NCBI GenBank assembly: GCA_027451965.1
Contig: DAIDHJ010000001.1
Span: 162,368 to 226,367, forward strand
Direction of reading: 5' to 3'
DNA length: 64,000 nt
DNA from: Candidatus Adlerbacteria bacterium
GTDB lineage: Bacteria > Patescibacteriota > Minisyncoccia > Phycocordibacterales > SBAW01
Numbering within the stretch: position 1 is the first letter of the stretch; each line of letters begins with the position of its first letter. The notes under the pieces are model-generated. The model did no database searches and was not told where the DNA came from. It saw only the letters and a program-made list of their open reading frames with translations. Both the position numbers and the translations under genes were made by a program. Positions 5,105 to 34,247 of this stretch are shown here, piece after piece.

Positions 5105-5550
5105 GTAATTGCTGCTTTTATTTTCTCTGTAATACGTTCCGCTTCATCAGGCGGATAACTGTGTTGCGGCCAGTGTTTGTAGCCATCATGCAGAAATCGC
5201 GGAATGACATGCATGTGTGCATGAAAAATGATCTGCCCTGCAGCCTGGTCATTGTTCATACTGAGGTTAATGCCGTCAGCTTCCATTGCTTGTTTCACCG
5301 CTCTGGCCATTTTTTGCGTGGTATCCATGAGTGTATGCAGATCTGATGGAGCAATATCGTAAATATTGGCGGCGTGTGCTTTGGGAATCACCAAGGTATG
5401 CCCAGGGTTGTTGGGATGGATATCGAGAAATGCGAGCGTGTGTGCGTCCTCATAGAGCGTATATGCGGGAATAGAGCCTGATACGATACTGCAGAAGATG
5501 CATTCCATATTCCCTAGTATACTAAACGGCATGACGTATCGCGTGCGCAC
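5101..5550 (-). CDS. HIT-family (histidine triad) nucleotide hydrolase
   Basis: Contains CIFCSIV...HTLVIPKAHAANIYD...HAHMHVIPR (HxHxHxx triad). The likely true start is MECIFC at 5508. Confidence 0.8.
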   Translation of the reverse strand: MRTRYVMPFSILGNMECIFCSIVSGSIPAYTLYEDAHTLAFLDIHPNNPGHTLVIPKAHAANIYDIAPSDLHTLMDTTQKMARAVKQAMEADGINLSMNNDQAAGQIIFHAHMHVIPRFLHDGYKHWPQHSYPPDEAERITEKIKAAIT

Positions 5551-7180
5551 CCCATTTCACGAGGAATTACTCTATGATCTGTTGCACGCGAGAGGAATGA
5601 CCACAAAAGAGGAGCAGACAAAATTTCTTACGCCAGATTTTCTACGCGATTCACATGATCCGTTTCTGTTACCTGATCTCCCAAAAGCCGTAGAGCGGAT
5701 ACAGAGAGGAATAGCGAACCAGGAACCGATTGCCGTCTGGAGCGATTATGACTGTGACGGCATACCGGGCGGTGTCATGCTCGTCGAATTTTTTCGACTG
5801 ATCGGCTATCCCGTGCGGCACTACATTCCGCACCGGCACAAAGAAGGATATGGCCTCAACGAGGCGGGATTAACGCAGCTGGCCCAAGAAGGCGTACGTC
5901 TTATTATCACCGTCGATCTCGGTATCAGTGAACGGGATGCCGTAGAGTTCGCCAAAACGCTTGGCATCGATATCATCATCACTGATCATCATCTGGTATC
6001 GGGAAGAGTTCCCGATGCGCATGCGGTGATCAACCCCAAACGAGCTGACAATCAGTATCCGTTTGATGGATTGTGCGGCGCAGGAGTAGCATGGAAACTT
6101 GTACAAGGGATACTGAGCTGTAATCGATATGGTCTTAAGGAAGGTCAAGAGAAGTGGCTGCTCGATTTGGTAGGCATTGCGACGCTTGCTGATATGGTGC
6201 CGCTGCTCGATGAAAATCGTATGCTTGCTCGATACGGACTCATGGTAATGCGGCGCGCACGTCGACCGGGGATTGCCGCACTCCTCTCTTTGCTGCGTAT
6301 CCGTCCTTCAACGCTTACGGAAGATGATATTGGATTCATGATAGCGCCCCGTATCAATGCAGCATCGCGCATGGATGCACCTGAAACAGCCGCGCGATTG
6401 TTAGCAACGGGTGATACGGCGGAAGCGCGCACCCTTGCGCGCACCCTGCAGCAGCTCAATCAGCAGCGGAAAACACTTGTTGCTACCATTGCTAAAGAAG
6501 TAAATAAACGCCCCCTGGATCAGGAGGATGCGCCAGTCATCGTGATGGGTAATCCGAGCTGGCGTCCCGGCGTGCTCGGACTTGTCGCCAACTCATTGGC
6601 AGGAACGCATAAGAAACCGGTATTTCTCTGGGGAAGAGAGGGGGGAGATATGATCCGGGGATCCTGCCGCTCCGACGGCATACTCAATGTGGTGGAGCTC
6701 ATGCAGGGAGCGGGCGATGTATTTAGTGATTTTGGCGGCCACCATGCCTCCGGAGGTTTTTCACTCACACATGATCGTGTACCCGAACTAAGTAAGCGAC
6801 TCCAAGAATCATATCAGCGACTTCACGACGCATCCAGCGTTTTTCCAGATGCCATTGTGGAACGGGAGTTACCGCTGAGCGAAGTACTCCATGCGCATAA
6901 GGTATTGCTCCAGCTAGCGCCGTTCGGACAGGGGAATCCGAAACCACTATTTGTATTTCCGCGCGTCTCTATTGGAAATGTGCGCTCGTTCGGAAAGGGC
7001 GGTGAGCATGTGTCGCTACAGCTTTCAATGCATGACACTGCCATTCCTGCTATTTCATTTTTCATGACACCGGAAGCATTTCAGAAACCTCTGGAGGCGG
7101 GAATCACGGCGGACATCGTAGGGCACATAGAAACTGATTGGAAGGGTGCTTCAAGAATTCGCGTGGTTGATGTTATATAA
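5498..7180 (+). CDS. recJ: Single-stranded-DNA-specific exonuclease RecJ (DHH/DHHA1)
   Basis: DHH motifs DYDCDGI and ITDHH are present, with a C-terminal DHHA1 GGHxxAAG-like segment (FGGHHASGGF). The start is uncertain (5498 or the internal M at 5531). It is divergent with the HIT gene. Confidence 0.85.
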   Translation: MHSIFPSILNGMTYRVRTPFHEELLYDLLHARGMTTKEEQTKFLTPDFLRDSHDPFLLPDLPKAVERIQRGIANQEPIAVWSDYDCDGIPGGVMLVEFFRLIGYPVRHYIPHRHKEGYGLNEAGLTQLAQEGVRLIITVDLGISERDAVEFAKTLGIDIIITDHHLVSGRVPDAHAVINPKRADNQYPFDGLCGAGVAWKLVQGILSCNRYGLKEGQEKWLLDLVGIATLADMVPLLDENRMLARYGLMVMRRARRPGIAALLSLLRIRPSTLTEDDIGFMIAPRINAASRMDAPETAARLLATGDTAEARTLARTLQQLNQQRKTLVATIAKEVNKRPLDQEDAPVIVMGNPSWRPGVLGLVANSLAGTHKKPVFLWGREGGDMIRGSCRSDGILNVVELMQGAGDVFSDFGGHHASGGFSLTHDRVPELSKRLQESYQRLHDASSVFPDAIVERELPLSEVLHAHKVLLQLAPFGQGNPKPLFVFPRVSIGNVRSFGKGGEHVSLQLSMHDTAIPAISFFMTPEAFQKPLEAGITADIVGHIETDWKGASRIRVVDVI

Positions 7181-7616
7181 CAGGATGAAACAACTCACGA
7201 TTTATACCGATGGCGGCGCGAGAGGCAATCCCGGACCTGCGGGTATTGGAGCAGTATTGGTAGATGAGCAGGGAAAGGTGGTGAAGGAAATCTCCGAATA
7301 CCTGGGAGAAACAACGAACAATTTTGCTGAATATGAAGCATTGATCCATGCACTTACCGCAGCACGCGCACTCAGCGATCTGCATACGCATGTTGCGGTA
7401 TGCATGGATAGTGAACTGGCAGTGCGCCAGCTCAACGGCATGTATAAGGTAAAAGAGCCGACCCTCAAGCAGCAGTTTGCAAAAGTACAAGGGCTTCGCG
7501 ACTCCTTTTCGCACATTACGTTTACACATGTGCGCCGCGCACAGAATGCGCACGCAGATCGCCTGGTGAATCAGGCGATCGATGCGGCGTTAGGAAAGCG
7601 CCGCAAAGCGCTCTGA
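7146..7616 (+). CDS. rnhA: Ribonuclease HI
   Basis: Contains MKQLTIYTDGGARGNPGPAGIGAVL. The probable start is at 7185, just after the recJ stop. Confidence 0.8.
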   Translation: MLQEFAWLMLYNRMKQLTIYTDGGARGNPGPAGIGAVLVDEQGKVVKEISEYLGETTNNFAEYEALIHALTAARALSDLHTHVAVCMDSELAVRQLNGMYKVKEPTLKQQFAKVQGLRDSFSHITFTHVRRAQNAHADRLVNQAIDAALGKRRKAL

Positions 7617-8177
7617 CATCACCGACCAGTTAAGGTTTTTGAAAAATGCATCGATATAGGCACTGCGTCCGCCCGTGCCGAACTGGGCAAGGTATGCGTG
7701 TTCCCACACATCCAGTACGCAAATTGCCGGAAGCGATACAAGATGTCCTTGCATGTGCTCGTCCACCCATACATTGATGAATGCTTCTTGTGCTGGATCG
7801 TAGTACAGCACCGCCCATCCTACGCCGCGCATCATACCAACGGAGCGAAATTGCTGCTCCCACGCTGCAAAACTGCCAAACTGTTTTGTAAGGGCTTTAT
7901 GCAGTGGATCGTTGTCTGCAAGCTCCTTAGCGCCATGTTCCCATTGATCGAAATAGAGTTCATGCATGCGCATACCGTCCCATTCAAATGCGAAGCGTCG
8001 AACCGCTTCAGCAATAGCGGTGGTATGTTGCGCAGTATCTTTCCGCAAGTCTTCTAAAAGAGTGCTGAGGGCATTGGTATTCTTTACATATCCGCCATAC
8101 AGGCCGAGGTGTGCATCTACCAGTTCTTTTGAAATACCTTCAAGTGCTGGAAGGGAAAATTTTTTCTCTTGGTACAT
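7590..8177 (-). CDS. sod: Fe/Mn superoxide dismutase
   Basis: Contains LPALEGISKELVDAHLGLYGGYV...DVWEHAYLAQFGTGGRSAYIDAFFKNLNW, including the canonical DVWEHAYY-type metal-site motif. It overlaps rnhA convergently by 27 nt. Confidence 0.9.
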   Translation of the reverse strand: MYQEKKFSLPALEGISKELVDAHLGLYGGYVKNTNALSTLLEDLRKDTAQHTTAIAEAVRRFAFEWDGMRMHELYFDQWEHGAKELADNDPLHKALTKQFGSFAAWEQQFRSVGMMRGVGWAVLYYDPAQEAFINVWVDEHMQGHLVSLPAICVLDVWEHAYLAQFGTGGRSAYIDAFFKNLNWSVMSERFAALS

Positions 8178-8270
8178 ATCTAAATAAAATAAGACTTACC
8201 TACTAAGTTGTTATATGTGCTCAAGTATACCGCACCTGTCTCTATGTCTGGAGTGAATTGAAATGGGTGA

Positions 8271-8513
8271 TTATATAACCCCAGCCTTCTTGAGCGTTTT
8301 GTATGCGCCGTTTTTCACCAGCGTGCGGAATCCTTTCGTGGAAAGCGTGACGGTCACTGTGCGGTTGAGTTCAGGGATAAAGATTCGCTTTTTTTGGAGA
8401 TTTGCGTGCTTGCGAACGTTGCCGGTTGGGTTGAATTTGGTAGCACGAACACGATTGCTGTATCCACCAGCGACTTTCGAGCTTTTTTGGGTGACGGGAC
8501 AGATTTTTGCCAT
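8271..8513 (-). CDS. rpmB: 50S ribosomal protein L28
   Basis: MAKICPVTQKSSKVAGGYSNRVRATKFNPTGNVRKHAN... is comparable to the L28 consensus (CxVTGK...N.SHA.N.TKRRF.PNL). Confidence 0.8.
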   Translation of the reverse strand: MAKICPVTQKSSKVAGGYSNRVRATKFNPTGNVRKHANLQKKRIFIPELNRTVTVTLSTKGFRTLVKNGAYKTLKKAGVI

Positions 8514-8551
8514 ACAGAATATGTGACTGTGGTATCATACTTTTCTGAACT

Positions 8552-9190
8552 ATGCAAACTGATCTCATTATTTTTAGCCTTATTGTGCTCATTTTCTCTG
8601 CGATTTTGCATGAAGTGGCGCATGGGTACATGGCGGATTACCTGGGAGATCCGACTGCGCGGCTCATGGGAAGACTCACCCTCAACCCGCTCCCGCATCT
8701 CGATCCGGTCGGTTCTATCATCCTGCCGCTTCTTTTAAAGATAACCGGTTCTCCTATCTTGATCGGGTATGCCAAGCCCGTACCCTATAATCCCAATAAT
8801 CTGCCGGGCAAGTATGACGAAACACTTGTAGCCGCTGCGGGACCCGCTACTAATCTGGCCATTGCACTGGTATTTGGACTTATCGTGCGGTTCGGCGCTG
8901 CGGCAATGACGCCGACCCTCCTGCAAGCATTTGCTGTCATCGTGTACCTCAATCTGCTGCTCGGGTTTTTCAATCTCATCCCGATTCCTCCATTGGATGG
9001 TTCCAAGGTGCTCTCGGGCATTTTGCCTCGCCCCCTTGCCCATAGCTATGATCTGTTCCGTCGCAATTTCGAACGGCTAGGACTGCTCCCGCTCGTACTA
9101 CTCCTTCTGTTTTTCTTCTATGCGCTCAGCCCAGCCGTAACCCCCTTTCTTTCCTGGATATTTCAAGGGCTTACCGGGATGTCGTTATAG
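8552..9190 (+). CDS. Site-2-protease-family (peptidase M50-like) membrane zinc metalloprotease
   Basis: Polytopic membrane protein with the HExxH motif (ILHEVAHGYMADYLGDP), LNPLPHLDPVGS and a downstream LDGSKVL segment. Confidence 0.7.
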   Translation: MQTDLIIFSLIVLIFSAILHEVAHGYMADYLGDPTARLMGRLTLNPLPHLDPVGSIILPLLLKITGSPILIGYAKPVPYNPNNLPGKYDETLVAAAGPATNLAIALVFGLIVRFGAAAMTPTLLQAFAVIVYLNLLLGFFNLIPIPPLDGSKVLSGILPRPLAHSYDLFRRNFERLGLLPLVLLLLFFFYALSPAVTPFLSWIFQGLTGMSL

Positions 9191-9232
9191 CAGACTAGTT
9201 GCGAGCAACAAGCACCTGTAGTACAGTATCGG

Positions 9233-9252
9233 AGCCCACAGCGGGCTTTTTT
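9233..9252 (+). terminator. Hairpin plus T6, rho-independent terminator-like, immediately upstream of rpsL
   Basis: Sequence agccc-acagc-gggct followed by tttttt. It ends 8 nt before the rpsL ATG. Confidence 0.45.
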
Positions 9253-9259
9253 CTTAGAT

Positions 9260-9667
9260 ATGGCACGCATCTCACAATTGGTACGCAAAGGGCGCAAGCC
9301 GCTCCTTTCCAAATCCAAAGCACCAGCCTTGGCGCGCGGCTTTAATGCACTCAAAAATAAGCCGGTCTTCTATCCCTCTCCCTTCAAACGTGGCGTGTGC
9401 ACGAAAGTAACGACCAAGACGCCACGCAAACCAAACTCTGCTATTCGAAAAATTGCTCGTGTGCGCCTCACTAACGGTCAGGAAATCACTGCATACATTC
9501 CCGGAGAAACGCATAACCTCCAAGAGCACTCTGTGGTCATGGTGCGGGCCGGCCGTGTGAAGGATATTAACGTCCGCTATCAGGTAGTGCGCGGCCGATT
9601 GGATGCTGCAGGACTTGATAAACGCCGAGTATCTCGCAGCCGCTATGGTGCAAAGCGACCAAAATAA
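9260..9667 (+). CDS. rpsL: 30S ribosomal protein S12
   Basis: [13 protein letters not shown]...[60 protein letters not shown]...GAKRPK. It carries an ~11 aa insertion relative to E. coli S12. Confidence 0.95.
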
Positions 9668-9678
9668 TTTTTTAGCAT

Positions 9679-10149
9679 ATGCGACGACCAATAAAACGAA
9701 AACACGAACTGAAGCCGGATTTGAAGTACAATTCGCTTCGCGTTGAGAAATTTATTAACTCCGTCATGTGGGATGGAAAGAAATCAACCGCCCGCAAAGT
9801 GGTGTACGATGCTCTTGCTTTGATAAAAGAACAATCAGGTACTGATAATCCGATCGAACTGTTTGATGCAGCAATCCGAAACGTAAGCCCTGCTATGGAA
9901 ATTCGCTCACGCCGCGTCGGCGGCGCAAACTATCAGGTGCCGCGCGAAGTGCGCCCAGAGCGCAAACAAGCACTCGCATTTCGCTGGATTTTGACGGCCG
10001 CACGGTCCCGAAAAGGCATAGCCATGTCGAAGCGTCTTGCAGAAGAACTCTTGGCAGCGTCCCGCAATGAGGGTGCAGCAGTAAAGAAGCGCGAAGATAC
10101 GCACAAGATGGCAGAAGCAAACAAAGCGTTCGCACACTTTGCGTGGTAA
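9679..10149 (+). CDS. rpsG: 30S ribosomal protein S7
   Basis: Contains PDLKYNSLRVEKFINSVMWDGKKSTARKVVYDAL... Confidence 0.95.
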   Translation: MRRPIKRKHELKPDLKYNSLRVEKFINSVMWDGKKSTARKVVYDALALIKEQSGTDNPIELFDAAIRNVSPAMEIRSRRVGGANYQVPREVRPERKQALAFRWILTAARSRKGIAMSKRLAEELLAASRNEGAAVKKREDTHKMAEANKAFAHFAW

Positions 10150-10185
10150 CCCAGAGCGCTTCTGGCGCATTCTAGAGGTAAGTCC

Positions 10186-11175
10186 ATGACTGAACATCTC
10201 CTGCAGCGCCGCATTGTTACGATCGGAGGAGGAAGCGGCGGTTTTGTGGTAAATCGAGGACTGGTGCAATATCCGGTTGCCCCGACCGCCATCTGTACCG
10301 TATTTGATAACGGCGGCAGCACGGGGAAATTGCGTGACGAGTTTGGTTCGCTCCCGCAAGGTGATATTCGTCGCTGTATGCTCGCACTGGCCGACGGCGA
10401 ATATGATACGCTGCGCGCCATTTTCAATCACCGGTTTAACGGCAACGGAAAAGGGTTGTCCGAACATAATGTAGGGAACGTGCTCCTGCTTGCAGCAGAG
10501 CAGTTGTGGGGACCGATTGAAGGGATTCAGCGTGTCAGCAAGCTACTGGGTACCAAGGGGCAGATCCTCCCGATTTCCGTTGATGCAGCTGATTTAATCG
10601 CCGAACTATCCGACCGTTCATTGGTGCGCGGGGAAGCAGCGATCGATACCCGGCCGCTCTCTGACAAGCGCGGCATCGTGCGTGTGGCACTCGAACCTGA
10701 AGCGTTCATTGCACGCGAAGCAGCGGAAGCGATCAAGCAGGCGGAAGTGATTGTGCTTGGCCCAGGAGATCTCTACACCTCGCTCATCCCGAACTTTCTC
10801 GTGAAAGGGGTAGCGGAGTCGATCAGGCTCTCCGGAGCACGGGTTGTGTATGTCTGCAACATTATGACTAAGTATGCAGAGACAAACGGATTCGGTGTCA
10901 TTGATTTTGTAGAGACGCTTTTTCGATACCATATCGGCCGTGACCTGCTCGATGCCATCATCGTAAATAGCGCTCCTATTCCCGATGCGCTTCAGAAGGT
11001 ATATGCCGATACGGAAAAAGCCTTTCCGGTGCGGTACGAGCATACGATGGACGAACTGCTCTCCCTGCGAGCTAAACAGGTAGTCGTTGCTGACGTGCTG
11101 AGCGAGCCGGCACTCAACCAGTCGCTGGTTCGTCATGATTCAGCAAAGCTAGCACGGGTGATCATGGCACTCTAA
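10186..11175 (+). CDS. YvcK/CofD-family (UPF0052, gluconeogenesis-factor / 2-phospho-L-lactate-transferase-like) protein
   Basis: [17 protein letters not shown]...[16 protein letters not shown] is the characteristic GGGTG and DNGGSTG pair of the CofD/YvcK fold. Confidence 0.75.
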
Positions 11176-11242
11176 CGTTGCTTTTTTTATAGAATTTCGC
11201 TATGGTGAGCAGTACGCCTCGGGCGTTTTTCTTTTTGATTCT

Positions 11243-13387
<2,145 letters not shown>

Positions 13388-13437
13388 TTTGTTGATAACT
13401 GCCTCTGGTAGATTCTTGACACCCGTATAATAAAGGG

Positions 13438-14592
13438 GTGTTTCGTTCTACCAAAACATTTTTTGGATATAAAAATCTTGCTGCAAGCATTACTGCTCTG
13501 TTGGTAATAGCAGCTGGAGCCTATTTTGGATTTCTGCATCCCATCGCGCATGCGCAGCAAGCGGGAATTAGCGGTACGGGGTGGAGTAGCACTATTGGAT
13601 GGATCGATATTGGAAGTAATGGATACAATCCTGGTGTAACAGTAAATAATGGTGTTATTTCTGGCGCAGGTTGGAACAACCATATTGGGTGGGTAAGTTT
13701 CAACTCGAATGGCTGTGGTCCTCAAGGACAGGTAAATGCTTCAGGACAGGTAAGTGGTTGGGCGCAAGTGCTCTCGACTGGAGGGTGTATTGATCTGGGG
13801 AGCACTAATCATGGGGATGGACTTACTTTTAGTAACGGAACGCTTTCTGGAAATGCGTGGGGAGGAAACATAGTGGGATGGGTGCAATTCAGTGGTACTG
13901 CATCATGCACACCAAACTATACATGTAGCAATAGCAGCACCAGTGTGTATACCAATAGCCAGTGCCAACAAAGCAGCACCTCGTGCCCTGGTGGCTGCAA
14001 TGCACAAACCGGACAATGTAATAGCTGTACACCTAACTACACTTGCAGTGGTAACAGTAGTGTGTATACCAATGCGCAATGTCAAAAAACAACCACCAGC
14101 TGTCCAGGCAATGGTTCCTGCAGCGCGCAAACCGGTCAGTGTATCTGTACGCCGGGATACGTCTGTTTGGATGCGAATACGAGCGCTTATGTGAACAATC
14201 AATGTGGCCAATCCCAAATTACTCGATGTCAGCTTGGCTGCAATGCACAAACCGGCCAGTGCAACCCTCAGCAAATTGGACCATTGCAAAACAGCTGTTT
14301 GAGCGCTGGTACTCAATGGCCTGTATGTACAGCAAATGCTCGAGTGGATGCCGGTAACACTGAAACTCTGTATTGGCACACTGCGCTTCAGAACAAGATC
14401 ACGTGCAGTCTCGTAGGTACCAACGGTGATTCCTGGTCTCCAAGTACTGCCAATGGGTCGGTAACGACTTCAGCACTATTTACTGCAAACAATAATCCTG
14501 TCACCTACACCATGCACTGCAGCGATGGCGTTGGATATCATTTCGACGCGACGGTACTTATCACCGCAGTGCCGAAGGTGATAGAAAAATAA
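13438..14592 (+). CDS. Secreted/surface protein with N-terminal G/W-rich repeats and three to four ~40-aa six-Cys modules
   Basis: Signal peptide (…IAAGAYFGFLHPIAHA/QQ), repeats xSGxGWxxxIGWIxFxSNG, then modules CTPNYTC…QC…SCPG.C.AQTGQC. GTG start. Confidence 0.6.
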   Translation: MFRSTKTFFGYKNLAASITALLVIAAGAYFGFLHPIAHAQQAGISGTGWSSTIGWIDIGSNGYNPGVTVNNGVISGAGWNNHIGWVSFNSNGCGPQGQVNASGQVSGWAQVLSTGGCIDLGSTNHGDGLTFSNGTLSGNAWGGNIVGWVQFSGTASCTPNYTCSNSSTSVYTNSQCQQSSTSCPGGCNAQTGQCNSCTPNYTCSGNSSVYTNAQCQKTTTSCPGNGSCSAQTGQCICTPGYVCLDANTSAYVNNQCGQSQITRCQLGCNAQTGQCNPQQIGPLQNSCLSAGTQWPVCTANARVDAGNTETLYWHTALQNKITCSLVGTNGDSWSPSTANGSVTTSALFTANNNPVTYTMHCSDGVGYHFDATVLITAVPKVIEK

Positions 14593-14619
14593 TAGTTATT
14601 AATCAATTAACACGTATTT

Positions 14620-14850
14620 ATGCATAGCCTTATTAAAGATTCGTTTCGACAGTTCATCATCTTTTTCCTCGCACTAGGAGCAGTACTCTTAGTCGCAACA
14701 GTAGTGCGTGCGGCAAATTGGACCGGTCCAACTGCGGCATTCCCGGGCGGAAATGTATCTTGGCCAGTCAATTGTAGCGGAACACAAGTCGTGATGACTG
14801 ATGCAAGTGGGAATCTTACGTGCGGTACACCGGTCGCTACCTACAACTAG
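14620..14850 (+). CDS. Small secreted/TM-anchored hypothetical protein (76 aa)
   Basis: N-terminal hydrophobic segment FIIFFLALGAVLLVATVV, followed by two Cys residues. It lies in the same orientation within the island. Confidence 0.4.
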   Translation: MHSLIKDSFRQFIIFFLALGAVLLVATVVRAANWTGPTAAFPGGNVSWPVNCSGTQVVMTDASGNLTCGTPVATYN

Positions 14851-14871
14851 TACGCATACTTATTTGATTTT

Positions 14872-16194
14872 ATGAATGTACGAACTTTTCTCACCTCTCT
14901 TTTGTTTATAGGTGGTAGCATGCTTTACGGCGTGCTGCTTCCCATGACGGTACATGCCGCAACGGAGACCTATACAGCTACAACATCGCAACAGCTGCCA
15001 GTTGCAAATGTGTACATTCATAACGTTACGATTGTTAATCGAACCAGCAACTCATTTACCGTTTTTTTCTATATCGGTAATGGGCAAGGCGCTCAATCAG
15101 ATGTGAAATATGGTGTGCAATTGTTCCAAGCAGGTCCTAAGGGTTCACAGGTATTGGCAGATGAGTATATTGCCAATGACACACTCTCACTTACCTCAGG
15201 AGCGCCAATGGTAGGTCATACACTTACCTACACTGCTCCAGCCTTTTTCTCTGGTACCTATCAGGTATGGGTTACCGCAGAGAACTCGAATGGATTTCCG
15301 TATAGCGCGGTGCCTGCCGGTACAGTCACTTTTACCCCCTCAGTGAAGGGGTATATAGAAATTATCCAACCCACTTGCCTTCTTTCGGTGATGGGGGATC
15401 CTACGCACGCACAGTATTCATCGCAGCAGGGCGTTGATGTGCTTCCCACGGAAAAACTTATTGCTACCTGTCAGGCTACGAATCATTTCAGTACTTCCCA
15501 AGCAGTGCAACCTCACTTTGAGACACGATATCGTTCGCAATATGGTTCTGTTCTTCCATTCTTCCAATCTCCTGGTGCCACCACAACACTTGCTGCAAAC
15601 AAGACACAAACGATTTCATTTGTTCTGCCTAATGCACAGGTCCCGCAAGCGTATGAGGTTAGTGCTTGGTTGACCGATGGTACAGGAGCAACTATCTCTA
15701 ACAAGGCATCATTCCACTATGTGGTTGCCGGACCTTCCGGTACGATTCAAAATGCAATTTTGGATAAAAATCAGTATGGAATGGGAGATACAGCACACGC
15801 GACCATTACTTGGACGCCATCAGCAGATTCATTTCTGAACTCTCGCTACGGCAGTAGCACTACTGAGATGTTGAACATAGAAGCAGTACTATCTGCTGCA
15901 AGCTCAAGTGTGCCCTGCGGCGCTCCAGTAACTGTGCAAGTGCCTGCTTCAGGGCTTACTACCACAATTGCAATGCCGCTCACTGCATCATGTATAAATC
16001 CATCGTTACTGGTGACTCTCAAAGATGCAAATGGAAATGTACTTGATCAAAAAACGTTTACGGTCACTTCTCCTATTTCTTCTGCATCGCCGCGCATGTT
16101 TGAAATCGTATTAGCGGCAGTGATCATCCTTTTGATTCTGTACGGAGTGTTGCACACTGCGTATACGCATAAGAAAACCAGTCCGGTAGTATGA
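14872..16194 (+). CDS. Surface protein with signal peptide and C-terminal TM anchor (440 aa)
   Basis: N-terminal FLTSLLFIGGSMLYGVLLPMTVHA and C-terminal FEIVLAAVIILLILYGVL…HKK anchor. No recognisable catalytic motif. Confidence 0.55.
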   Translation: MNVRTFLTSLLFIGGSMLYGVLLPMTVHAATETYTATTSQQLPVANVYIHNVTIVNRTSNSFTVFFYIGNGQGAQSDVKYGVQLFQAGPKGSQVLADEYIANDTLSLTSGAPMVGHTLTYTAPAFFSGTYQVWVTAENSNGFPYSAVPAGTVTFTPSVKGYIEIIQPTCLLSVMGDPTHAQYSSQQGVDVLPTEKLIATCQATNHFSTSQAVQPHFETRYRSQYGSVLPFFQSPGATTTLAANKTQTISFVLPNAQVPQAYEVSAWLTDGTGATISNKASFHYVVAGPSGTIQNAILDKNQYGMGDTAHATITWTPSADSFLNSRYGSSTTEMLNIEAVLSAASSSVPCGAPVTVQVPASGLTTTIAMPLTASCINPSLLVTLKDANGNVLDQKTFTVTSPISSASPRMFEIVLAAVIILLILYGVLHTAYTHKKTSPVV

Positions 16195-17618
16195 TTAGAA
16201 CAGTAGTAAAAATGAGTATGCACCTATCTTATTCTCGATACGCTCAATATCTAGCAAGTTTTGTGATGTTCCTTGTTGTTGCGGCCGCATTTCCACACGC
16301 AGCTCGGGCGCTCACTATCACTCCTATTTTCTATGACCCAAGCAACTACAATCACACCTTCGTTGCTTCTACACTAACCGCAGATACAAATCAGAGCGCC
16401 TATTGTCCTGGACAACCGATAACCGTATCTGGTATACGGCCGTTTGGTGCCACCTGCGGCAATGGTAACTATGCCGATGTGGTGATGGTCGTTAATGGGT
16501 ACACATTACCGCAAACGAGCAATGTAACCTGTCCATATACCGGCGTTACCTTTTGTACTGCGTACACGGTGCAGAGTCAGCAGGTGTGCTATGACGTCTG
16601 CAAGCCAACGAAGTATCCTGATATACAAACTTGTACTACGAAATGCACTACTGAAAACGTAAAAGTTTGTAATTCAGGTGCTACTGCGAGTTACTCTGTT
16701 TGCAATGAAACAGATGTATCCAATATTGCTACAGCAAATCCTTCTTGGTATGTGCTTTCCATAAACGAAAATCCGCTTAACTGGCAATACTCCTTTACTG
16801 CCCCACCCACTCCTGGTACATACCAACTCCCTATCACCCTCTATCTCACTAACCTAGCTCCTCCTAATAACGTGAATTGGACGCAGGTGAACACCTCTCT
16901 CTCGTACACTGTTAACTCTTGTGCTAACGTCTGCTCCATTGCATCACTCCCTTGGACAAAAGGGCAGCGCCTAGCAGCTAGACAGCTGGTGTCTGCGAAC
17001 GATTTCAACACCCTTGAAGGTGGCGTGCAGACCATATGGGATAGTGCATATAACGCGGGACTTCTGCTTGGATCTTTTGTAAATAGTCCATTCTGGTCTT
17101 CCAATGCCAATCATGGAACTCCAATAAAAGCTCAACCGCTAGCTGAACTGGTATCAGCTCTTACAGTAATCAATAACAATTGTCCAAACGGCTCATCTTT
17201 GTCGAATCTTCCACAATTTGTTCCCGGTGCTCCAGTAAAAGCAGCAGATTTTAACGGTCTTCGCAGTGCTATCGAAGCATTTGCTCCAAAACCATCTACT
17301 GCTGATGATATAACCGTATTTAGTGTTGCAGGTGTTGATGCTGCGATATCAGGAACAAATATTTCTGCAACAGTGCCCTACAATACGAGCGTTACAGCAC
17401 TAACTCCTTCTATAACTGTCTCAAATGGAGCAACGGTAAGCCCTGCATCTGGTGTAGCACAGAACTTCACTAACCCTGTTTCTTACAAGGTAACCGCTGC
17501 GGACGGAGTAACTAGCAAAACCTACACAGTAACCATATCAATCGCCTCTGCGCCAACTGGCGGTGGCGGAGGAGGGGGCGGTGGCGGAGGAGGGGGCGGT
17601 GGCCACTTACTTAACTAA
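16191..17618 (+). CDS. Secreted Cys-rich protein with C-terminal Ig-like beta-sandwich region and terminal Gly15 tail
   Basis: Signal-like N-terminus, many Cys, a C-terminal TVFSVAGV…YKVTAADGVTSKTYTVTIS region, then GGGGGGGGGGGGGGGHLLN. Its ATGA start overlaps the upstream stop. Confidence 0.55.
   Translation: MIRTVVKMSMHLSYSRYAQYLASFVMFLVVAAAFPHAARALTITPIFYDPSNYNHTFVASTLTADTNQSAYCPGQPITVSGIRPFGATCGNGNYADVVMVVNGYTLPQTSNVTCPYTGVTFCTAYTVQSQQVCYDVCKPTKYPDIQTCTTKCTTENVKVCNSGATASYSVCNETDVSNIATANPSWYVLSINENPLNWQYSFTAPPTPGTYQLPITLYLTNLAPPNNVNWTQVNTSLSYTVNSCANVCSIASLPWTKGQRLAARQLVSANDFNTLEGGVQTIWDSAYNAGLLLGSFVNSPFWSSNANHGTPIKAQPLAELVSALTVINNNCPNGSSLSNLPQFVPGAPVKAADFNGLRSAIEAFAPKPSTADDITVFSVAGVDAAISGTNISATVPYNTSVTALTPSITVSNGATVSPASGVAQNFTNPVSYKVTAADGVTSKTYTVTISIASAPTGGGGGGGGGGGGGGGHLLN
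17559..17603 (+). repeat. Tandem 18-nt repeat (ggcggtggcggaggaggg x2.5) encoding poly-Gly
   Basis: The tract was read directly at the 3' end of the 16191..17618 CDS. Confidence 0.8.
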
Positions 17619-17630
17619 ATACAAAGCATA

Positions 17631-17666
17631 ATGCCCGGTATCAATCTTGATACCGGGCATTTTTTG
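17631..17666. terminator. Bidirectional rho-independent terminator between convergent genes
   Basis: 12-bp perfect stem atgcccggtatc/gataccgggcat with loop aatctt, followed by ttttt. It lies between the stop at 17618 (+) and the stop at 17678 (-). Confidence 0.7.
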
Positions 17667-17677
17667 CGATGAACGGA

Positions 17678-18871
17678 CTAGTTGGTAGCGCTATAGCACA
17701 CGATGCCGGGCTGGGCGAACCCTGTCGGCGGCGTGACGAGGCTCCAGGTCGTGCCATCCGTCGTGCTCAGGACTTGCGTTACGTCGAGCGGTGCAACCAG
17801 AGCTGCCGCGATTGATGATGACGCAAAGAGCTCGAGTTGACCGCAAGCCATTGTCATTGGTATTGGAATCCCCTCGAGATTACCCGCCGGGTAGTACGGG
17901 GGGTAGACAGTTGGCTCCGTGTTCGACGTTGTTTCCTGGAAGGGCATGTAGAACACGGGATTGGTGTTTTCCGTATTGGTCGGATCCAGACCACCACAGG
18001 AAGTTGCCGGCGGTTGATTCGTACAGAGTACGAATCGAACATTGTTGTTCAAAGCGCCGAACCCTTGCTGGGTGAGATCCATCCCGGTACCGAATTCCGG
18101 AAATGGCGATTGGACCAAGGGGTACACATGGCCGTTGCAGCACCCGTTGCTGTTGCTAGGTGCTTCATTGACGTAGAACGTCACAGGTTGGAACCCTTTT
18201 CCACTGGTGCCGATGTATTGCCACCCGCCGACCGTGAGTCCAAGACTTGTCACCGTCGGACAGTTGTTCGGCGCAGCACACGACGGTCCGATAATCTCAT
18301 TCGAGCTCGTGAGCACCTGAATGGTGCCTGTGGGGCTCGATGAGAGGGACACGTTTGCGCTGTTGAGATTCAGGAATGAAGCGGTACCGTTTTGGACGAC
18401 CGCCCAGATTCCTGCGTCACCGCCGTAGTCGTTGGTCAGCTGAAATGTCGCGGAAATGGACGATCCATTGTCCACGAGGTTGGTCGGTGCGGTCCAGTAG
18501 TTACCTTGCACGCCGGCGCGCTGTCCGGTACTGGCGACGTAGGGATGGTTGGGATCGCAGTAGTGCGAATCGGATTCCTGCGGAATCTGAGACGCACTCG
18601 TAATGTATCCGCCTCGGTAGGCGCATTGCACCACGCTGGTGATGCCGGCGTAGGCGCTTTTTTGCACCGTCACCGTCACGGTTTGCGAACCACCTTGTCC
18701 GGGGTAGGTTACCTGAACGGCCGCGCTCGGCGGCGGAGAGGTCGGAGGTGCGGTAGGGGGCATCGTGCTCGGGGGTGGCGGCAAAACGCTGCCTCCGCCT
18801 CCACTGCTGCCACCACCACCACACGCGGCAAGCGCTGCAACCAGCAGTGTGCCAATCAGTAGATTGCGCAT
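17678..18871 (-). CDS. Lipoprotein with Pro-rich linker (397 aa), function unknown
   Basis: Signal plus lipobox LVAALAAC, then GGGGSSGGGGS and PPPPSTMPPTAPPTSPPPS, followed by a Cys-containing globular region. Confidence 0.6.
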   Translation of the reverse strand: MRNLLIGTLLVAALAACGGGGSSGGGGSVLPPPPSTMPPTAPPTSPPPSAAVQVTYPGQGGSQTVTVTVQKSAYAGITSVVQCAYRGGYITSASQIPQESDSHYCDPNHPYVASTGQRAGVQGNYWTAPTNLVDNGSSISATFQLTNDYGGDAGIWAVVQNGTASFLNLNSANVSLSSSPTGTIQVLTSSNEIIGPSCAAPNNCPTVTSLGLTVGGWQYIGTSGKGFQPVTFYVNEAPSNSNGCCNGHVYPLVQSPFPEFGTGMDLTQQGFGALNNNVRFVLCTNQPPATSCGGLDPTNTENTNPVFYMPFQETTSNTEPTVYPPYYPAGNLEGIPIPMTMACGQLELFASSSIAAALVAPLDVTQVLSTTDGTTWSLVTPPTGFAQPGIVCYSATN

Positions 18872-19002
18872 GGTATTGCTATTCCTTTCTTCGGAAGGGA
18901 GGGGTGTAACTAGTCGTTCTCAAAGAACGAACAGTGATCTGGCGAAAGCATATATATAATTTCCTATTTTGTCAAGTAATGCCCGGAAATCAGCCTACTA
19001 CA

Positions 19003-19030
19003 TTGACTCACCTAGCGTGTCTGTTACAAT
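19003..19030 (+). promoter_or_regulatory. Sigma70-like promoter candidate for tuf (TTGACT-N16-TACAAT)
   Basis: The hexamers were read ~80 nt upstream of the tuf ATG. A mirror TTGACA-like element on the minus strand at ~18970 would serve the divergent lipoprotein gene. Confidence 0.35.
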
Positions 19031-19110
19031 GCCTATAACGCATTCGTGCGTGGTTTTTCTTTTGGCTCTAAAAAGCGCGTACTTATTAATCATTTATTCA
19101 CTTAGCATTT

Positions 19111-20316
19111 ATGGCAGCAGACACATTTGAACGAAATAAGCCGCACGTGAACGTTGGTACCATCGGTCACGTCGACCACGGTAAAACAACGCTTACCGCA
19201 TCCATCCTCCACACGCTCGACATGGCGAAGGATCAAGGATTCGGCGCACGCGTGGAAGGGGTAGAGGGTATTGATAACGCTCCTGAAGAAAAGGCACGTG
19301 GTATTACCATCGCACTCCACCACTCTGAGTACTGGACTCCAGAGCGCCATTACGCGCACATCGACGCTCCAGGCCACGCAGACTATATCAAGAACATGAT
19401 CACCGGTGCCGCACAAATGGACGGTGCGATTCTCGTCGTTGCAGCAACAGACGGTGTGATGCCGCAGACGCGTGAACACATCCTTCTTGCAAAGCAGGTA
19501 GGTGTGCCGCGTATCATCGTATTTCTCAACAAGGTAGACATGGTAGACGACAAGGATCTAGTTGATCTTGTCGAGGAAGAAGTGCGAGATCTCCTTACCA
19601 AGCAAGGATTTGACGGTGCAAATACTCCGGTCATCCGCGGTTCCGGTCTCAAAGCACTTGAAAGCAAGGACATCAACGACGAATGGTCTCAGAAGGTGCT
19701 TGAGCTCGTCAAAACGCTTGACTCATACATCCCGCAACCAACCCGCGAACTCGATAAGCCGTTCCTCATGCCGATCGAAGACATCTTCTCTATTGAAGGT
19801 CGCGGTACGGTAGTTACCGGAAGAATTGAACGCGGTCAGGTAAAAGTCGGTGAAGAAGTGGAAATCGTCGGTCTCCAGCCAACTACCAAAACGACTATCA
19901 CCGGTATCGAAATGTTCAACAAGCAGCTTGAATCAGGACAGGCCGGAGACAATGCCGGAATCTTGCTGCGCGGTACGAAGAAAGAAGACGTACATCGCGG
20001 TCAGGTGCTTGCAAAGACAGGTTCCGTAACCCCACACACTGAGTTTGAAGCAGAAGTATACGTGTTGAACAAGGATGAAGGAGGCCGTCACACACCATTC
20101 TTCAGCGGATACAAACCACAGTTCTACATCCGTACGACGGACGTAACCGGAGAGGTAACACTTGCAGCAGGAACAGAAATGGTCATGCCGGGAGACACCG
20201 TTACCTTCAAGGTAAAATTGACTGCCCCTGTTGCTCTTGAAGAGAAGCAGCGTTTCGCTGTTCGTGAAGGAGGTAAAACCGTAGGAGCCGGTGTGGTTAC
20301 CAAGATAGTTGCCTAA
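19111..20316 (+). CDS. tuf: Elongation factor Tu
   Basis: [17 protein letters not shown]…[13 protein letters not shown]…DAPGHADY…NKVDMVDD. Confidence 0.97.
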
Positions 20317-20722
20317 TACAAAAGTACCTATGCCGACGCGCGCAAAAACCACCACAGACACAGAAACAAAGAAAGCGGCACCTCGCCGCACGCGCGCAAA
20401 GGCAGCGGTTGCAGCACCACAGAAACTGCGCATCAAAGTACGTGCCTACGAACACAAGGTACTCGATATGTCGGTACGCCAAATCGTAGAAACCGCACTT
20501 CGCTATGATGCCGATATTGCCGGACCTATTCCGTTGCCGACTGAGATCAAAAAATACACGGTAAACCGTTCTACGTTCATCTATAAAGATGCACGTGAAC
20601 AGTTCGAGATGCGGGTGCATAAACGCCTCATCGATATTCTCAATCCTTCTCAAAAAGTTATTGAAGCGCTTACCAATCTCTCCTTACCATCAGGAGTGAC
20701 CATCGAAGTGAAGATGATCTAA
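20309..20722 (+). CDS. rpsJ: 30S ribosomal protein S10 with ~30-aa basic N-terminal extension
   Basis: The core [24 protein letters not shown]…[17 protein letters not shown]…[18 protein letters not shown] matches S10. The track ORF starts at a TTG overlapping tuf. The first ATG is at 20330 ([27 protein letters not shown]…). Confidence 0.9.
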
Positions 20723-20728
20723 TCCAGA

Positions 20729-21313
20729 ATGGAGCACTTGAAACGAGAAAAAACATTCGTTCTGATTAAACCAGACGGAGTCCGCAAGGGGCTCATTGGT
20801 GAAGTCATTCGTCGTTTTGAACAACGAGATCTCAAGATTGTTGCATTGGAAATGTTCCAACCCACGCGACAAATGATTGATGAGCACTATCCAAAAGATA
20901 CTGCATGGATTGAACGGGTGGGAGGAAAAACCCTAAGCACGTACGAAAAGTACAATGTTAATCCTGTAGAACAGCTTGGTACTGATGACCCGCTTACTAT
21001 TGGGAACATGGTACGAGAATGGCTTGTTGACTATATGGTATCAGCACCGTTGGTACGCATGGTGGTAGAAGGAGCACATGCTGTTGATGTGGTACGCAAA
21101 ATTGCTGGCCCTACACTTCCGTATGCCGCAGAAGTAGGTACCATTCGAGGTGATTTTTCCATTGATTCTCCTGCAATTGCCAATAGCGAAAAACGCGCGG
21201 TTGCCAACATTCTGCACGCTTCTGAAACACCCCAGGAAGCAGAACACGAAATCAAGCACTGGTTTGGGAATGCAGTTATTCACTCCTACAAGCGTTTCGG
21301 CATCGACGAGTAG
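20729..21313 (+). CDS. ndk: Nucleoside-diphosphate kinase, a long form with an internal insertion
   Basis: FVLIKPDGVRKGLIGEVIRRFEQRDLKIVALEM…ANILHASETPQEAEHEIKHWF (NDK His-loop). At 194 aa it is longer than the usual ~140 aa. Confidence 0.8.
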   Translation: MEHLKREKTFVLIKPDGVRKGLIGEVIRRFEQRDLKIVALEMFQPTRQMIDEHYPKDTAWIERVGGKTLSTYEKYNVNPVEQLGTDDPLTIGNMVREWLVDYMVSAPLVRMVVEGAHAVDVVRKIAGPTLPYAAEVGTIRGDFSIDSPAIANSEKRAVANILHASETPQEAEHEIKHWFGNAVIHSYKRFGIDE

Positions 21314-21461
21314 TGCTGTGCTACAATAGGCGCAGACTGCTCAGGCACATGTCCGTACGTGTTATCAGGGAATGCGTTGTCGCTGTATCACCGTGGTGAT
21401 ACACGTAGCATACCCACCTGGCATAAAAGCCGACACGTGCTTGCGCAGTCAAACAAAGTGT

Positions 21462-21486: not shown

Positions 21487-22863
21487 ATGATACATACTAG
21501 TATGTCAGCAACCGTTACATTTTGCGGAGGAACCGATGAAGTGACTGGCTCCAATTTTTTACTTACTGCAGACGCCACACATGTACTTGTTGATTGCGGC
21601 CTCACGCAAGGCATTCCCGAAGCAGAGTTGCGCAATTGGGCCCCCTTTCCTTACGACCCGGCAGCTATACCATTCCTGATCGTTACTCATGCACACCTCG
21701 ATCATGTCGGGAAAATTCCAAAACTCGTAAAAGACGGATTTCGGGGACGTATTATTTCCACTGAAGCAACCAAAACGCTTGCAGAGCCGCTCCTGTATGA
21801 CGCACTAGAGCTCATCGAGCATCGAGCGCAACACCATGGAAGAGAAGCGCTGTATGGTAAGGAGGACATTGTCGCCACATTTCGCTTGTGGGAAGGCATA
21901 TCATACCATAAGGAACTCGTGCTCAGCGACAACATTTCGCTGACCTTATTCAATTCAGGGCATATTCTCGGTTCTTCCATGGCTCAGTTCAAAAGAGGAG
22001 AACGCAGCATTGTTTTTACCGGAGATCTCGGCGGCGGCAATTCTCCATTACTGTCTCTTGCTGATCCGCTTCCCCATGCGAACTACCTGGTTATGGAAAG
22101 TGTGTACGGAGATCGTACTCGTCCAGAAGATGATAATAGACTAAAGGAGCTGGAACAGGTGCTAAAGCATACTACTGAACGAGGCGGTACGTTACTTATC
22201 CCAGCGTTTTCTATGGAACGCACGCAAGATCTGCTCTTTGATATACGCTCTTTGTTGATAGAAAAACGTGTTCCTTCTATACCGGTATATCTCGACTCGC
22301 CATTGGCAGAAAAAATCACCACTGACTATATGCGGTATCCTGACTATTTCGCTCCTGCTATCGCTACTCGTATGCGCAATGGAGAAGCTATCTTTTCATT
22401 TCCGGAATTACACTGGATACAAGATATGAATGCCTCTCGTGCACTTTCTCATGCACCAAACCCTAAGATTATCATTGCTGGATCTGGTATGAGCAATGGC
22501 GGAAGAGCGCTATTGCATGAGACGTGGGTACTCCCTGATCCTTCCGCAACTCTGCTTATTGTCGGATACCAAGCTCCTGGAACGCTGGGAAGGGAACTCA
22601 TTGATGGTGCGCATCGCGTAGCAGTACAACATCAGCCAGTATCGGTACGCTGTCACATAGAGCACATTTTTGGTTATTCAGCGCACATGGATGGGAATGA
22701 GCTGCTTGCATTTGCACAGCAGGGAAAAGATACCTTGCAGCAGGTCTTTGTGGTAATGGGAGAACCCGCTTCTGCCGCATTTTTGGCCCAGCGCTTACAT
22801 GAATATGCCGGCATGGCGGCGGTTACTCCGTCACTTGGGGAAACAGTAACCATAGAACTGTAG
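21487..22863 (+). CDS. MBL-fold beta-CASP ribonuclease (RNase J / CPSF-like RNA-metabolising metallo-beta-lactamase)
   Basis: VDCGLTQG…LIVTHAHLDHVGKIP (HxHxDH), later GHILGSS and a C-terminal H. The domain order matches beta-CASP. Confidence 0.75.
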   Translation: MIHTSMSATVTFCGGTDEVTGSNFLLTADATHVLVDCGLTQGIPEAELRNWAPFPYDPAAIPFLIVTHAHLDHVGKIPKLVKDGFRGRIISTEATKTLAEPLLYDALELIEHRAQHHGREALYGKEDIVATFRLWEGISYHKELVLSDNISLTLFNSGHILGSSMAQFKRGERSIVFTGDLGGGNSPLLSLADPLPHANYLVMESVYGDRTRPEDDNRLKELEQVLKHTTERGGTLLIPAFSMERTQDLLFDIRSLLIEKRVPSIPVYLDSPLAEKITTDYMRYPDYFAPAIATRMRNGEAIFSFPELHWIQDMNASRALSHAPNPKIIIAGSGMSNGGRALLHETWVLPDPSATLLIVGYQAPGTLGRELIDGAHRVAVQHQPVSVRCHIEHIFGYSAHMDGNELLAFAQQGKDTLQQVFVVMGEPASAAFLAQRLHEYAGMAAVTPSLGETVTIEL

Positions 22864-33728: not shown

Positions 33729-34247
33729 TTAGTGATCTTCGTAAATTTGATTATTAGTGAAAGGGCACGATCCGTTACACCAACTAGAACAGTTGTACAC
33801 ATATGATTTCCATTGTTTTACTGCACATCTATTTGGACTATTGGGATCTTCAAGTTGTGCTATGAGGTCATAGTTTGAGCCATCCGAATTTGCCGCATAC
33901 GCGTATGAGTAACTCCCGTTTGACCAAGGATTTCCAGAGGTGTTGAGCGGGTCGGTAGGGAGCTGAGCCAGGTACGGAGCAAGCATAGTCTGCAGTGCGC
34001 CCCATTGAGTGGCATTATTACTTACACACCACCCGCTGGTGTATGCACAAGTGCCTTGAGGGTATGTCCCATGATCGTTCGCGTATTCTTCTAACGCCAA
34101 TTGAATAGTATGTAGATCGGATTCACGACGAGCGTCTCGCGCTTTAGCGCGAGCACTATTTAACGAAACAAGAATTATGGATGCCAAAATGCCAATGATG
34201 GCGATGACGACAAGTAATTCAATAAGGGTGAATCCTCTGTCTTTCAT
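33729..34247 (-). CDS. Type IV pilin (prepilin with class III signal)
   Basis: [39 protein letters not shown] carries the G/FTLIE cleavage and methylation motif. The C-terminus is Cys-rich. Confidence 0.8.
   Translation of the reverse strand: MKDRGFTLIELLVVIAIIGILASIILVSLNSARAKARDARRESDLHTIQLALEEYANDHGTYPQGTCAYTSGWCVSNNATQWGALQTMLAPYLAQLPTDPLNTSGNPWSNGSYSYAYAANSDGSNYDLIAQLEDPNSPNRCAVKQWKSYVYNCSSWCNGSCPFTNNQIYEDH

Follow-up and report, generated by a model that had tools for sequence, protein, structure and literature searches.

Haloquadratum walsbyi carries a cell-wall-associated island that has been described as a replacement-type flexible ("metagenomic") genomic island for surface structures (PMC4535781). 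We analyzed a locus of similar character in a 64,000-nucleotide stretch of DNA from Candidatus Adlerbacteria bacterium (Patescibacteriota; assembly GCA_027451965.1, contig DAIDHJ010000001.1, positions 162,368 to 226,367 of the forward strand), which we call the window. In it, five genes, P1 to P5, separate fusA, which encodes EF-G, from tuf, which encodes EF-Tu. Like the H. walsbyi island, whose diversity has been attributed to homologous recombination, this locus has a fixed chromosomal position, exists in equivalent but very divergent versions within one species, and has content, here predicted surface proteins, under purifying selection (PMC4535781). It differs in being small (5.3 kb, five genes) and protein-only, with no glycosyltransferases, and in lying inside a translation-factor cluster in Patescibacteria, with only two alleles seen and with recombination that is inferred. 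We consider it probable that between fusA and tuf lies a hypervariable envelope cassette of the replacement type, fixed in position, anchored by conserved translation genes, and present as deeply diverged alleles.

The surface layer (S-layer) cassette of C. difficile (slpA-secA2-cwp) and the pneumococcal cps locus (dexB to aliA) both consist of discrete alleles that are swapped by recombination in conserved flanks, and both encode the outermost phage- or immune-exposed layer. P1 to P5, however, have no homology to SlpA/Cwp or to capsule enzymes, and their flanks are essential translation genes. SAR11 bacteria, with their streamlined genomes, carry hypervariable region 2 (HVR2), a surface-related island between the 23S and 5S rRNA genes. 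The present locus resembles HVR2 as a surface-related hypervariable island inside a conserved, highly expressed information-processing cluster, but it lies between fusA and tuf rather than in the rRNA operon and encodes secreted proteins rather than mostly glycosylation and envelope biosynthesis functions. The diversity of SAR11 islands is taken up in PMC11796062. In Thermococcales, a hypervariable module of secreted immunoglobulin (Ig)-domain proteins has been read as a system for conflict or self/non-self recognition (PMC8416519). The module shares with our locus its hypervariability and its focus on secreted Ig-domain proteins; unlike our locus, it is archaeal, has other proteins in another gene order, and lacks a translation-gene anchor. 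Lineage-specific multigene insertions between concatenated translation operons have been described in Gammaproteobacteria (PMC6735719). There, too, foreign or accessory genes part operons of the transcription-translation supercluster, whereas here the split falls within the classical str unit, occurs phylum-wide, and has allelic content. In the literature searched, we found no published description of such a fusA-tuf cassette, and none of a fusA-tuf split or of the GYAWSxNIGWISF repeat motif (described below) in bacteria of the Candidate Phyla Radiation (CPR).

The list of open reading frames (ORFs) bears out the gene order given by the first-pass annotation of this DNA: fusA stops at 13387, tuf starts at 19111, and between them lie four co-directional genes (P1 to P4) and one convergent gene (P5). 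A homologue search with P3 identified contig L082 (ENA ERZ27236853), and one with P5 identified L089, from the same sample as L082, and L090 (GCA_021780835.1). Across 8351 bp (window 5095-13445), L082 and the window share 98.36% identity, in a block that takes in the genes for RecJ, SOD, L28, and the M50 peptidase, then rpsL, rpsG, the CofD gene, and fusA, together with their spacers; the EF-G of L082 is 99.4% identical at the amino acid level, with a synonymous divergence (dS) of 0.047. Identity collapses ~13 nt past the fusA stop, placing the left boundary at about 13400-13445. Beyond this boundary L082 encodes intact counterparts P1', P2', and P3', which are only 55-57%, 42-50%, and 59-60% identical to the window proteins. 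Automatic gene calls suggested that P1 is fragmented in L082, an idea we rejected given that an intact 440-aa ORF is present.

The right side of the locus shows the same pattern. L089 is 98.76% identical over window 18728-21391, which covers the P5 leader, the spacer, tuf, rpsJ, and ndk, and its EF-Tu is 99.75% identical at the amino acid level (the protein is identical in L087 and L088); the remainder of P5' in L089 is 44% identical to P5. L090 carries the same P5' allele as L089 plus a P4' that is 47% identical to P4. The right boundary is sharp, at 18728-18746 (the blastn block starts at 18728 and the sequences are near-identical from ~18746). This point is ~45 codons into P5, which places the signal peptide, lipobox, and linker in the conserved flank. 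The control region between P5 and tuf is ~99% identical in the allele-B strain, with one 2-nt indel. Here, allele A denotes the version in the window and allele B the version in L082, L089, and L090. Flanks of 98.4-98.8% nucleotide identity thus enclose island proteins of 44-60% identity. The borders are the same, with fusA on the left and the P5 leader and tuf on the right, in the window, in L082/L089, in L134 (GCA_021825025.1), in L092, and in a more distant relative, L031. Both alleles recur in independent data sets: allele A in the window, GCA_021825025.1, and three ENA samples, and allele B in one ENA sample and GCA_021780835.1. The alleles also differ at the end of P4, where Gly15-HLLN in allele A corresponds to Gly9 and a 25-aa tail with two Cys in allele B (L090 1270-1400), and allele B has a different hairpin at the position of the 17630-17661 hairpin. 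The 18-nt repeat at the P4 end could be slippage-prone. A conserved 25-mer from the P5-tuf spacer had no exact DNA match in Joint Genome Institute (JGI) metagenomes.

We read export signals in the five proteins from sequence rules and AlphaFold2 (AF2) models, and we searched Pfam, NCBIfam, PHROGs, PADLOC, and PDB sequences with P1 to P5. All five have a hydrophobic N-terminal segment, with AXA-type sites in P1 (AHA↓QQ), P2 (VRA↓AN), P3 (VHA↓AT), and P4 (ARA↓LT) and the lipobox LAAC in P5, which agrees with the signal peptides or lipoboxes reported for each by the first-pass annotation. Its statement that enzymatic motifs are absent also holds, in that no enzyme family in Pfam or NCBIfam matches P1 to P5. 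The sole match above the curated cut-off in these two databases was an Ig-like DUF5018 domain in P4, and the PHROGs, PADLOC, and PDB searches yielded nothing informative beyond it; weak EGF_2, Big_9, CUB_2, fusolisin, and RlmG matches fell below cut-off and were disregarded. Charged residues are scarce in P1 to P5 (K+R+D+E 5-9% vs ~20% in the rest of the window), and the proteins are enriched in S/T/N/G, P1 also in Cys.

The searches with hidden Markov models and structures that the first-pass annotation had proposed returned Ig/fibronectin type III (FnIII)-like folds for P3, beta-rich and Ig-like domains for P1, and the DUF5018 domain for P4. P1 consists of a signal/anchor helix, a Gly/Trp beta-repeat domain with the motif GYAWSxNIGWISF (~residues 40-200), three six-Cys modules of ~40 aa each, and an Ig-like domain at the C-terminus. 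Its AF2 model, built from 79 sequences, has high confidence at ~40-200 (beta-rich) and ~300-380 (Ig-like) and low confidence for the Cys modules. A word-indexed homologue search found one relative only, and an exhaustive HMMER search revealed a large family (667 clusters at 50% identity with E<1e-3; 74 at E<1e-10). The family consensus comprises the signal, repeated GYAWSxNIGWISF hairpins, six-Cys modules of the type CTPxxxC, and the C-terminal Ig-like domain, and P1 itself combines an N-terminal signal with 3-4 Gly/Trp hairpin repeats. Near-invariant columns include G46, W49, S50, G54, W55, G76, W79, S80, G84, and W85; some members carry PKD, Ig, or chitin-binding domains in addition. For the repeat domain, neither Pfam nor NCBIfam has a matching model. 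Homologues of P2 occupy the corresponding place in L082 (87 aa) and L031.

P3 has a signal peptide, three Ig/FnIII-like beta-sandwiches, a C-terminal transmembrane (TM) helix predicted at residues 407-436, and a basic tail (AF2 predicted local distance difference test score 78.7, predicted template modeling score 0.67). In Foldseek it matched RbmA, macroglobulin domains, and contactin FN domains (E ~1e-7) as well as adhesin repeats, and its family alignment contains 4 invariant Cys. A profile scan found the ~400-aa P3-family module in 41 further metagenome loci, usually as the N-terminal part of 600-1760-aa proteins among other exported proteins. The C-terminal DUF5018-type Ig-like domain of P4 (PF16410, 4.9e-10, 39.2 bits vs a cut-off of 38.2, residues 400-451) also matches the PDB entries 8a9y, 3hbz, and 3s30 at 8e-10 to 4e-8. 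The matches include Bacteroides proteins of the DUF4960/surface glycan-binding protein type (8e-10), and the resemblance is limited to the Ig-like domain rather than extending to the whole family architecture. P5 belongs to a small family of Cys-rich lipoproteins with many invariant Cys/Gly/Trp positions. One P5-family lipoprotein, 40% identical, lies in JGI contig L091 (63-10282) beside an integrase fragment, a DDE transposase-SIR2 protein, and a SEC-C protein, which are mobile-element-like surroundings unlike the setting of P5 in the window.

Several specific classes of surface or defense locus were not matched. P3 ends ...SPISSASPRMFEIVLAAVIILLILYGVLHTAYTHKKTSPVV, with a TM segment and basic tail and no LPXTG, unlike a sortase substrate; Pfam and NCBIfam gave no SLH or other S-layer match for P1 to P5; and PADLOC gave no match to an anti-phage defense system. 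We ruled out that the ORFs are pseudogenes or non-coding: homologues of all five in other assemblies are under purifying constraint, with conserved Cys/Gly/Trp columns and a proportion of nonsynonymous differences (pN) well below that of synonymous differences (pS). P1 to P5 are predicted to be exported or envelope-anchored, and their architecture (Ig/FnIII domains on a TM stalk, Cys-rich modules, Ig-like domains) fits that of adhesins, consistent with the surface nature that the first-pass annotation had proposed. A role in adhesion, as suggested by the fold predictions, is unproven.

A functional alternative to a general role at the surface or in host recognition is that the products are accessory or tip-associated components of the type IV pilus apparatus. 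At two loci (L084, L124) a P3-family gene directly precedes pilB-pilC, at three others (L096, L117, L131) it lies near pilins or pilT-pilC, the window contains a large pilus cluster, and type IV pilin genes occupy the fusA-tuf gap of two genomes (L056, L061). However, pilus genes are neighbors at only ~5/45 P3-family loci, and 30 kb separate the cassette from the pilus cluster. Moreover, the class III pilin signal (a short basic leader, G↓F-T-L-I/L-E, and a hydrophobic helix) is missing from the N-termini of P1 to P5, unlike seven true pilins elsewhere in the window that have the motif. We therefore regard a pilus function as unlikely. Other P3-family members lie directly after rpsJ (two loci) or between L25 and L31 (one locus).

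A rival account of the divergence of P1 to P5 is that it arose in place by local hypermutation or strong positive selection, with no exchange of alleles. Surface proteins often evolve fast, identity between the cassette proteins and those of L031 is only 32-42% against 87% for EF-G, and diversity-generating retroelements (DGRs) are common in the CPR. Nevertheless, the pattern of substitutions makes this explanation improbable. We estimated divergence by the Nei-Gojobori method and obtained dS values of 0.02-0.11 for the flank genes. For P1 to P3, allele A versus allele B gave pS of 0.76-0.86, which is saturated, and nonsynonymous divergence (dN) of 0.34-0.44; pN well below pS indicates that P1 to P3 are under purifying selection. 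Selection on proteins cannot saturate synonymous sites while the flanks, intergenic DNA included, differ by 1-2%. As a control, we used L134, whose flank is 98.67% identical to the window and thus as distant as that of L082: its P1 is 99.57% identical, with 1 amino acid change, so the rate of change at the locus is not uniformly high. Over window 7889-14599, L134 differs at 5 of 1155 nt in P1 and 73 of 5499 nt in the flank; that P1 is closer than the flank within allele A would fit a recent spread of the allele over strain backgrounds.

Divergence of the island is therefore bimodal, either ~0.4% or ~40%, which neither a fast local clock nor positive selection explains but which exchange of pre-existing, anciently diverged alleles does. 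We also rejected a DGR as the source of variation: there is no pair of template and variable repeats within the island, and divergence spans all five genes rather than a short variable region. Positions 13200-19300 contain no long near-repeat except the 120-nt modules of P1; no search for a reverse transcriptase covered the rest of the window. Scaled from L031, in which EF-G is 13% and P3 67% diverged, allele B looks as if it came from a lineage several per cent diverged in EF-G, which suggests either acquisition from a related species or a balanced polymorphism of long standing.

The exchange of old alleles at a standing locus has to be distinguished from the recent horizontal insertion of a lineage-specific adhesin island into a canonical str operon, which was the interpretation of the first-pass annotation. 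We scanned EF-G in one genome per species and mapped the window proteins onto 80 loci. In Patescibacteria, the fusA-tuf gap had a median of 973 bp and was at least 700 bp in 23/37 loci with tuf in range; in ~15 more loci, tuf was absent from the 3-10 kb available downstream of fusA. In other phyla, the median was 107 bp and none of 10 loci reached 700 bp. The contiguity of fusA and tuf that the first-pass annotation took for almost all bacteria is therefore not the rule in Patescibacteria. By contrast, rpsL-rpsG was always tight in Patescibacteria (median 52 bp), as it was in other phyla, and rpsG-fusA was split by at least 700 bp in 12/53 Patescibacteria loci.

The EF-G scan placed the window among Patescibacteria of the Kaiser-/Adlerbacteria type, and the closest matches were L031 ("Candidatus Adlerbacteria palsa_1324", 87% identical) and L001 (83% identical). 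In L031, five genes fill the fusA-tuf interval in the layout of the window. Three of them encode a Cys-rich secreted protein of 353 aa (32% identity to P1), a small secreted protein (42% identity to P2), and a protein of 455 aa with a signal and C-terminal TM segment (33% identity to P3, E = 3e-63); the other two encode a secreted protein of 303 aa weakly similar to P4 and a convergent lipoprotein with a Gly/Pro-rich start like that of P5. Because L031 shares this layout, we conclude that the arrangement is inherited rather than newly inserted; four other assemblies of the species (L082, L089, L090, L134) hold the same genes in place. Composition points the same way for most of the cassette, since the GC content, GC3, and codon usage of P1 to P4 are typical of the window. 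P5 alone deviates (GC 58.9%, z = +3.1; GC3 66%, above any neighboring gene), and this, together with the absence of a split in the non-Patescibacteria loci and in L001 (gap 125 bp), speaks for insertion. We found no integrase (Pfam), nearby tRNA, flanking repeat, or PHROG match at the island, and we rejected a prophage or integrative element. Recent insertion is accordingly very unlikely. What stands of the earlier reading is the surface nature of the products and the separate tuf promoter, and what falls is recent insertion and uniqueness.

The idea that the island or allele B is a chimeric join of different organisms made in assembly or binning is scarcely credible: all of the sequences are metagenome assemblies and six short contigs (L082, L087, L088, L092, L134, L135) end inside the island, but L134 and L135 cross fusA-P1 and L092 runs from P4 through the hairpin and P5 into the tuf start in allele A, L082 crosses fusA-P1'-P2'-P3', L089 the P4' end-P5'-tuf-rpsJ-ndk, and L090 P4'-P5' in allele B, every junction is seen in at least one further independent assembly, and breaks inside a polymorphic region are expected because assemblers of co-assembled strains meet coexisting alleles.

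Spacers are short from fusA through P4 (fusA-P1 50 nt, P1-P2 27 nt, P2-P3 21 nt, P3-P4 -4 nt), and a hairpin scan found no strong terminator-like hairpin from fusA to 17630-17661. At that position, a perfect 15-bp repeat (17630-17644/17647-17661) is followed by a T6 run on the + strand; the bidirectional terminator of the first-pass annotation is thus present as a structure, and termination of both P4 and P5 by it is likely. The separate tuf promoter proposed there also appears to be present. The candidate site reads TTGACT-16-TACAAT, and although promoter-like sites in the region are no commoner than in shuffled sequences (9 vs 8.2), the -35 of this site is invariant in the window, L031, and L006, while the surrounding intergenic DNA is unalignable. 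Conservation of both the -35 and the -10 extends to L031 and L006, and that of the leader hairpin to L031. Because P5 is convergent, transcription cannot read through into tuf, which needs its own promoter. P5 has a promoter-like site on the minus strand (18975..18947), whose TTGACA is conserved in L031.

The genes rpsL, fusA, and tuf share one arrangement: a promoter-like site, a short GC hairpin ~7 nt after the -10, a U-rich tract, and the start codon. It is conserved in L031 and, in part, also in L001 and L006. The tuf hairpin, which is followed by a T-run, lies downstream of the divergent promoter and is therefore a leader element rather than the terminator that the scan labels it; it may be an mRNA 5' stabilizer or an attenuator. 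The str "operon" is thus already divided into units, each with a promoter-like site and a leader hairpin, and the predicted transcription units are likely rpsL-rpsG-cofD, fusA-P1-P2-P3-P4, P5, and tuf-rpsJ-ndk and beyond. Shine-Dalgarno sequences are missing from most genes here. A further promoter-like sequence, TTGACA-cccg-TATAAT (13416-13440), abuts the GTG start of P1; its TATAAT, which stops 6 nt short of the GTG, is conserved in the allele-B strain L082. This TATAAT could be the -10 for a leaderless P1 transcript, or it could be coincidence.

We propose that near-invariant fusA on one side and the stretch from the P5 leader through tuf on the other would act as homology arms, and that alleles would be exchanged by homologous recombination between them, as the sharp boundaries and bimodal divergence suggest. 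P1 to P4 would be transcribed together with fusA, and P5 and tuf from the conserved divergent promoter region. The polymorphism could be kept by selection at the surface, exerted through phage receptors and/or recognition of partner cells; Patescibacteria are generally regarded as episymbiotic. Across the phylum, the fusA-tuf junction would repeatedly host other exported-protein genes and so be a preferred site for such cargo. Gap cargo varies by genome, and N-terminal signals or anchors occurred in 23/54 gap ORFs vs 35/352 flank ORFs (Fisher p = 2.5e-8; ORFs of at least 100 aa, crudely called), a contrast inflated by flanks full of cytoplasmic ribosomal proteins. Of all window ORFs, ~24% have such N-termini.

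Apart from that inflation, several points weigh against this proposal. Only two alleles were recovered within the species, and the picture of allele B combines separate contigs, two of them (L082 and L089) from one sample and the third (L090) from another assembly. Export of P1 to P5 is predicted from sequence rules and AF2, and co-transcription of P1 to P4 with fusA is deduced solely from spacing and from the fact that no terminator was detected. The P3 family is spread over many other contexts, so these proteins are not tied to the fusA-tuf site. Selection driven by phage or host is a likely though unproven cause, and the agent is speculative.

More tentatively, the fusA-tuf junction of Patescibacteria, with neighboring joints of the ribosomal supercluster, might be a dedicated slot for strain-specific envelope proteins, perhaps an S-layer or host-recognition apparatus, that is driven by translation-gene transcription and in which whole cassettes are swapped via the near-universal homology arms of EF-G and EF-Tu. 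We regard this broader idea as possible, with the balance against it. If it is true, the slot would set host or phage specificity strain by strain. Patescibacteria make up a large share of bacterial diversity, and to our knowledge almost nothing is established about what decides their interactions with host cells or phages; the locus is a concrete candidate for strain-level surface specificity. It also offers a practical typing locus between two universal markers, accessible by PCR or read mapping from fusA to tuf, and named families for testing: the GYAWS-NIGWI repeat protein, the triple-Ig TM stalk, and the Cys-rich lipoprotein. For genome analysis more generally, fusA-tuf contiguity cannot be assumed in Patescibacteria, where metagenome-assembled genomes tend to break at this junction.

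Table 1. Features of the fusA-tuf interval and its surroundings in the window
Feature	Position	Strand	Basis or remark
M50 peptidase	8552-9190		Pfam
rpsL leader hairpin	9231-9249
rpsL	9260-9667		Pfam
rpsG	9679-10149		Pfam
CofD/YvcK-family gene	10186-11175	+	PF01933, 1.5e-73
fusA promoter-like site	11178-11206
fusA leader hairpin	11214-11226
fusA (EF-G), conserved left anchor	11243-13387	+	full EF-G Pfam domain set
Hypervariable segment differing between allele A (window) and allele B (L082/L089/L090)	13400-18727
P1, secreted, 384 aa, 24 Cys	13438-14592	+	ORF list
P2, small secreted, 76 aa	14620-14850	+	signal-like N-terminus
P3, 440 aa, TM-anchored	14872-16194	+	ORF list
P4, secreted Cys-rich, 475 aa, ends G15-HLLN	16191-17618	+	start overlaps P3 stop by 4 nt
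Repeat encoding P4 Gly15	17559-17603	+	perfect, 18-nt x 2.5
Hairpin between convergent P4 and P5	17630-17661		15-bp perfect inverted repeat, flagged terminator-like
P5, Pro/Gly-rich lipoprotein, 397 aa, convergent to P1-P4	17678-18871	-	lipobox LAAC
P5 5' end (signal peptide, lipobox, Gly/Ser and Pro linker), part of conserved right flank	18728-18871	-	L089 alignment
Divergent control region P5/tuf	18872-19110		P5 and tuf promoter-like sites, tuf leader hairpin
tuf promoter-like site	19003-19030
tuf leader hairpin	19038-19051
tuf (EF-Tu), conserved right anchor	19111-20316	+	full Pfam domain set
rpsJ	20309-20722
ndk	20729-21313
beta-CASP RNase	21487-22863

The surroundings of the cassette depart from the classical order in other ways (Table 1). 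The CofD/YvcK-family gene between rpsG and fusA is a second break in the str order; L031, L082, and L134 have it in the corresponding place, and L006 does so in part. Downstream, rpsJ (S10) overlaps the end of tuf and is followed by ndk and then by a beta-CASP/RMMBL RNase rather than by rplC; the S10 operon is thus likewise uncoupled in the window, and the order is identical in L031. In other Patescibacteria, relatives of P3 or P1 lie amid translation genes between L25 and L31/RF1/S2 (L083 7415-9930), after S10 (L097 and L101), and between EF-P and S18/SSB (L081 4175-5389), which may be chance, given how densely such genes fill these genomes.

Elsewhere in the window, type IV pilus machinery is extensive (1457-3211, 33729-35006, and 49101-60128), with two PilB-like ATPases, PilT- and PilC-like genes, and at least 7 pilin-like genes with GFTLIELL. 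A tmRNA gene lies on the minus strand at 35433-35811 (Rfam RF00023, 112.6 bits). The window also encodes a tRNA-Ile with anticodon UAU at 39466-39538; such a tRNA is uncommon in bacteria, in which AUA is usually read by a lysidine-modified CAU tRNA.

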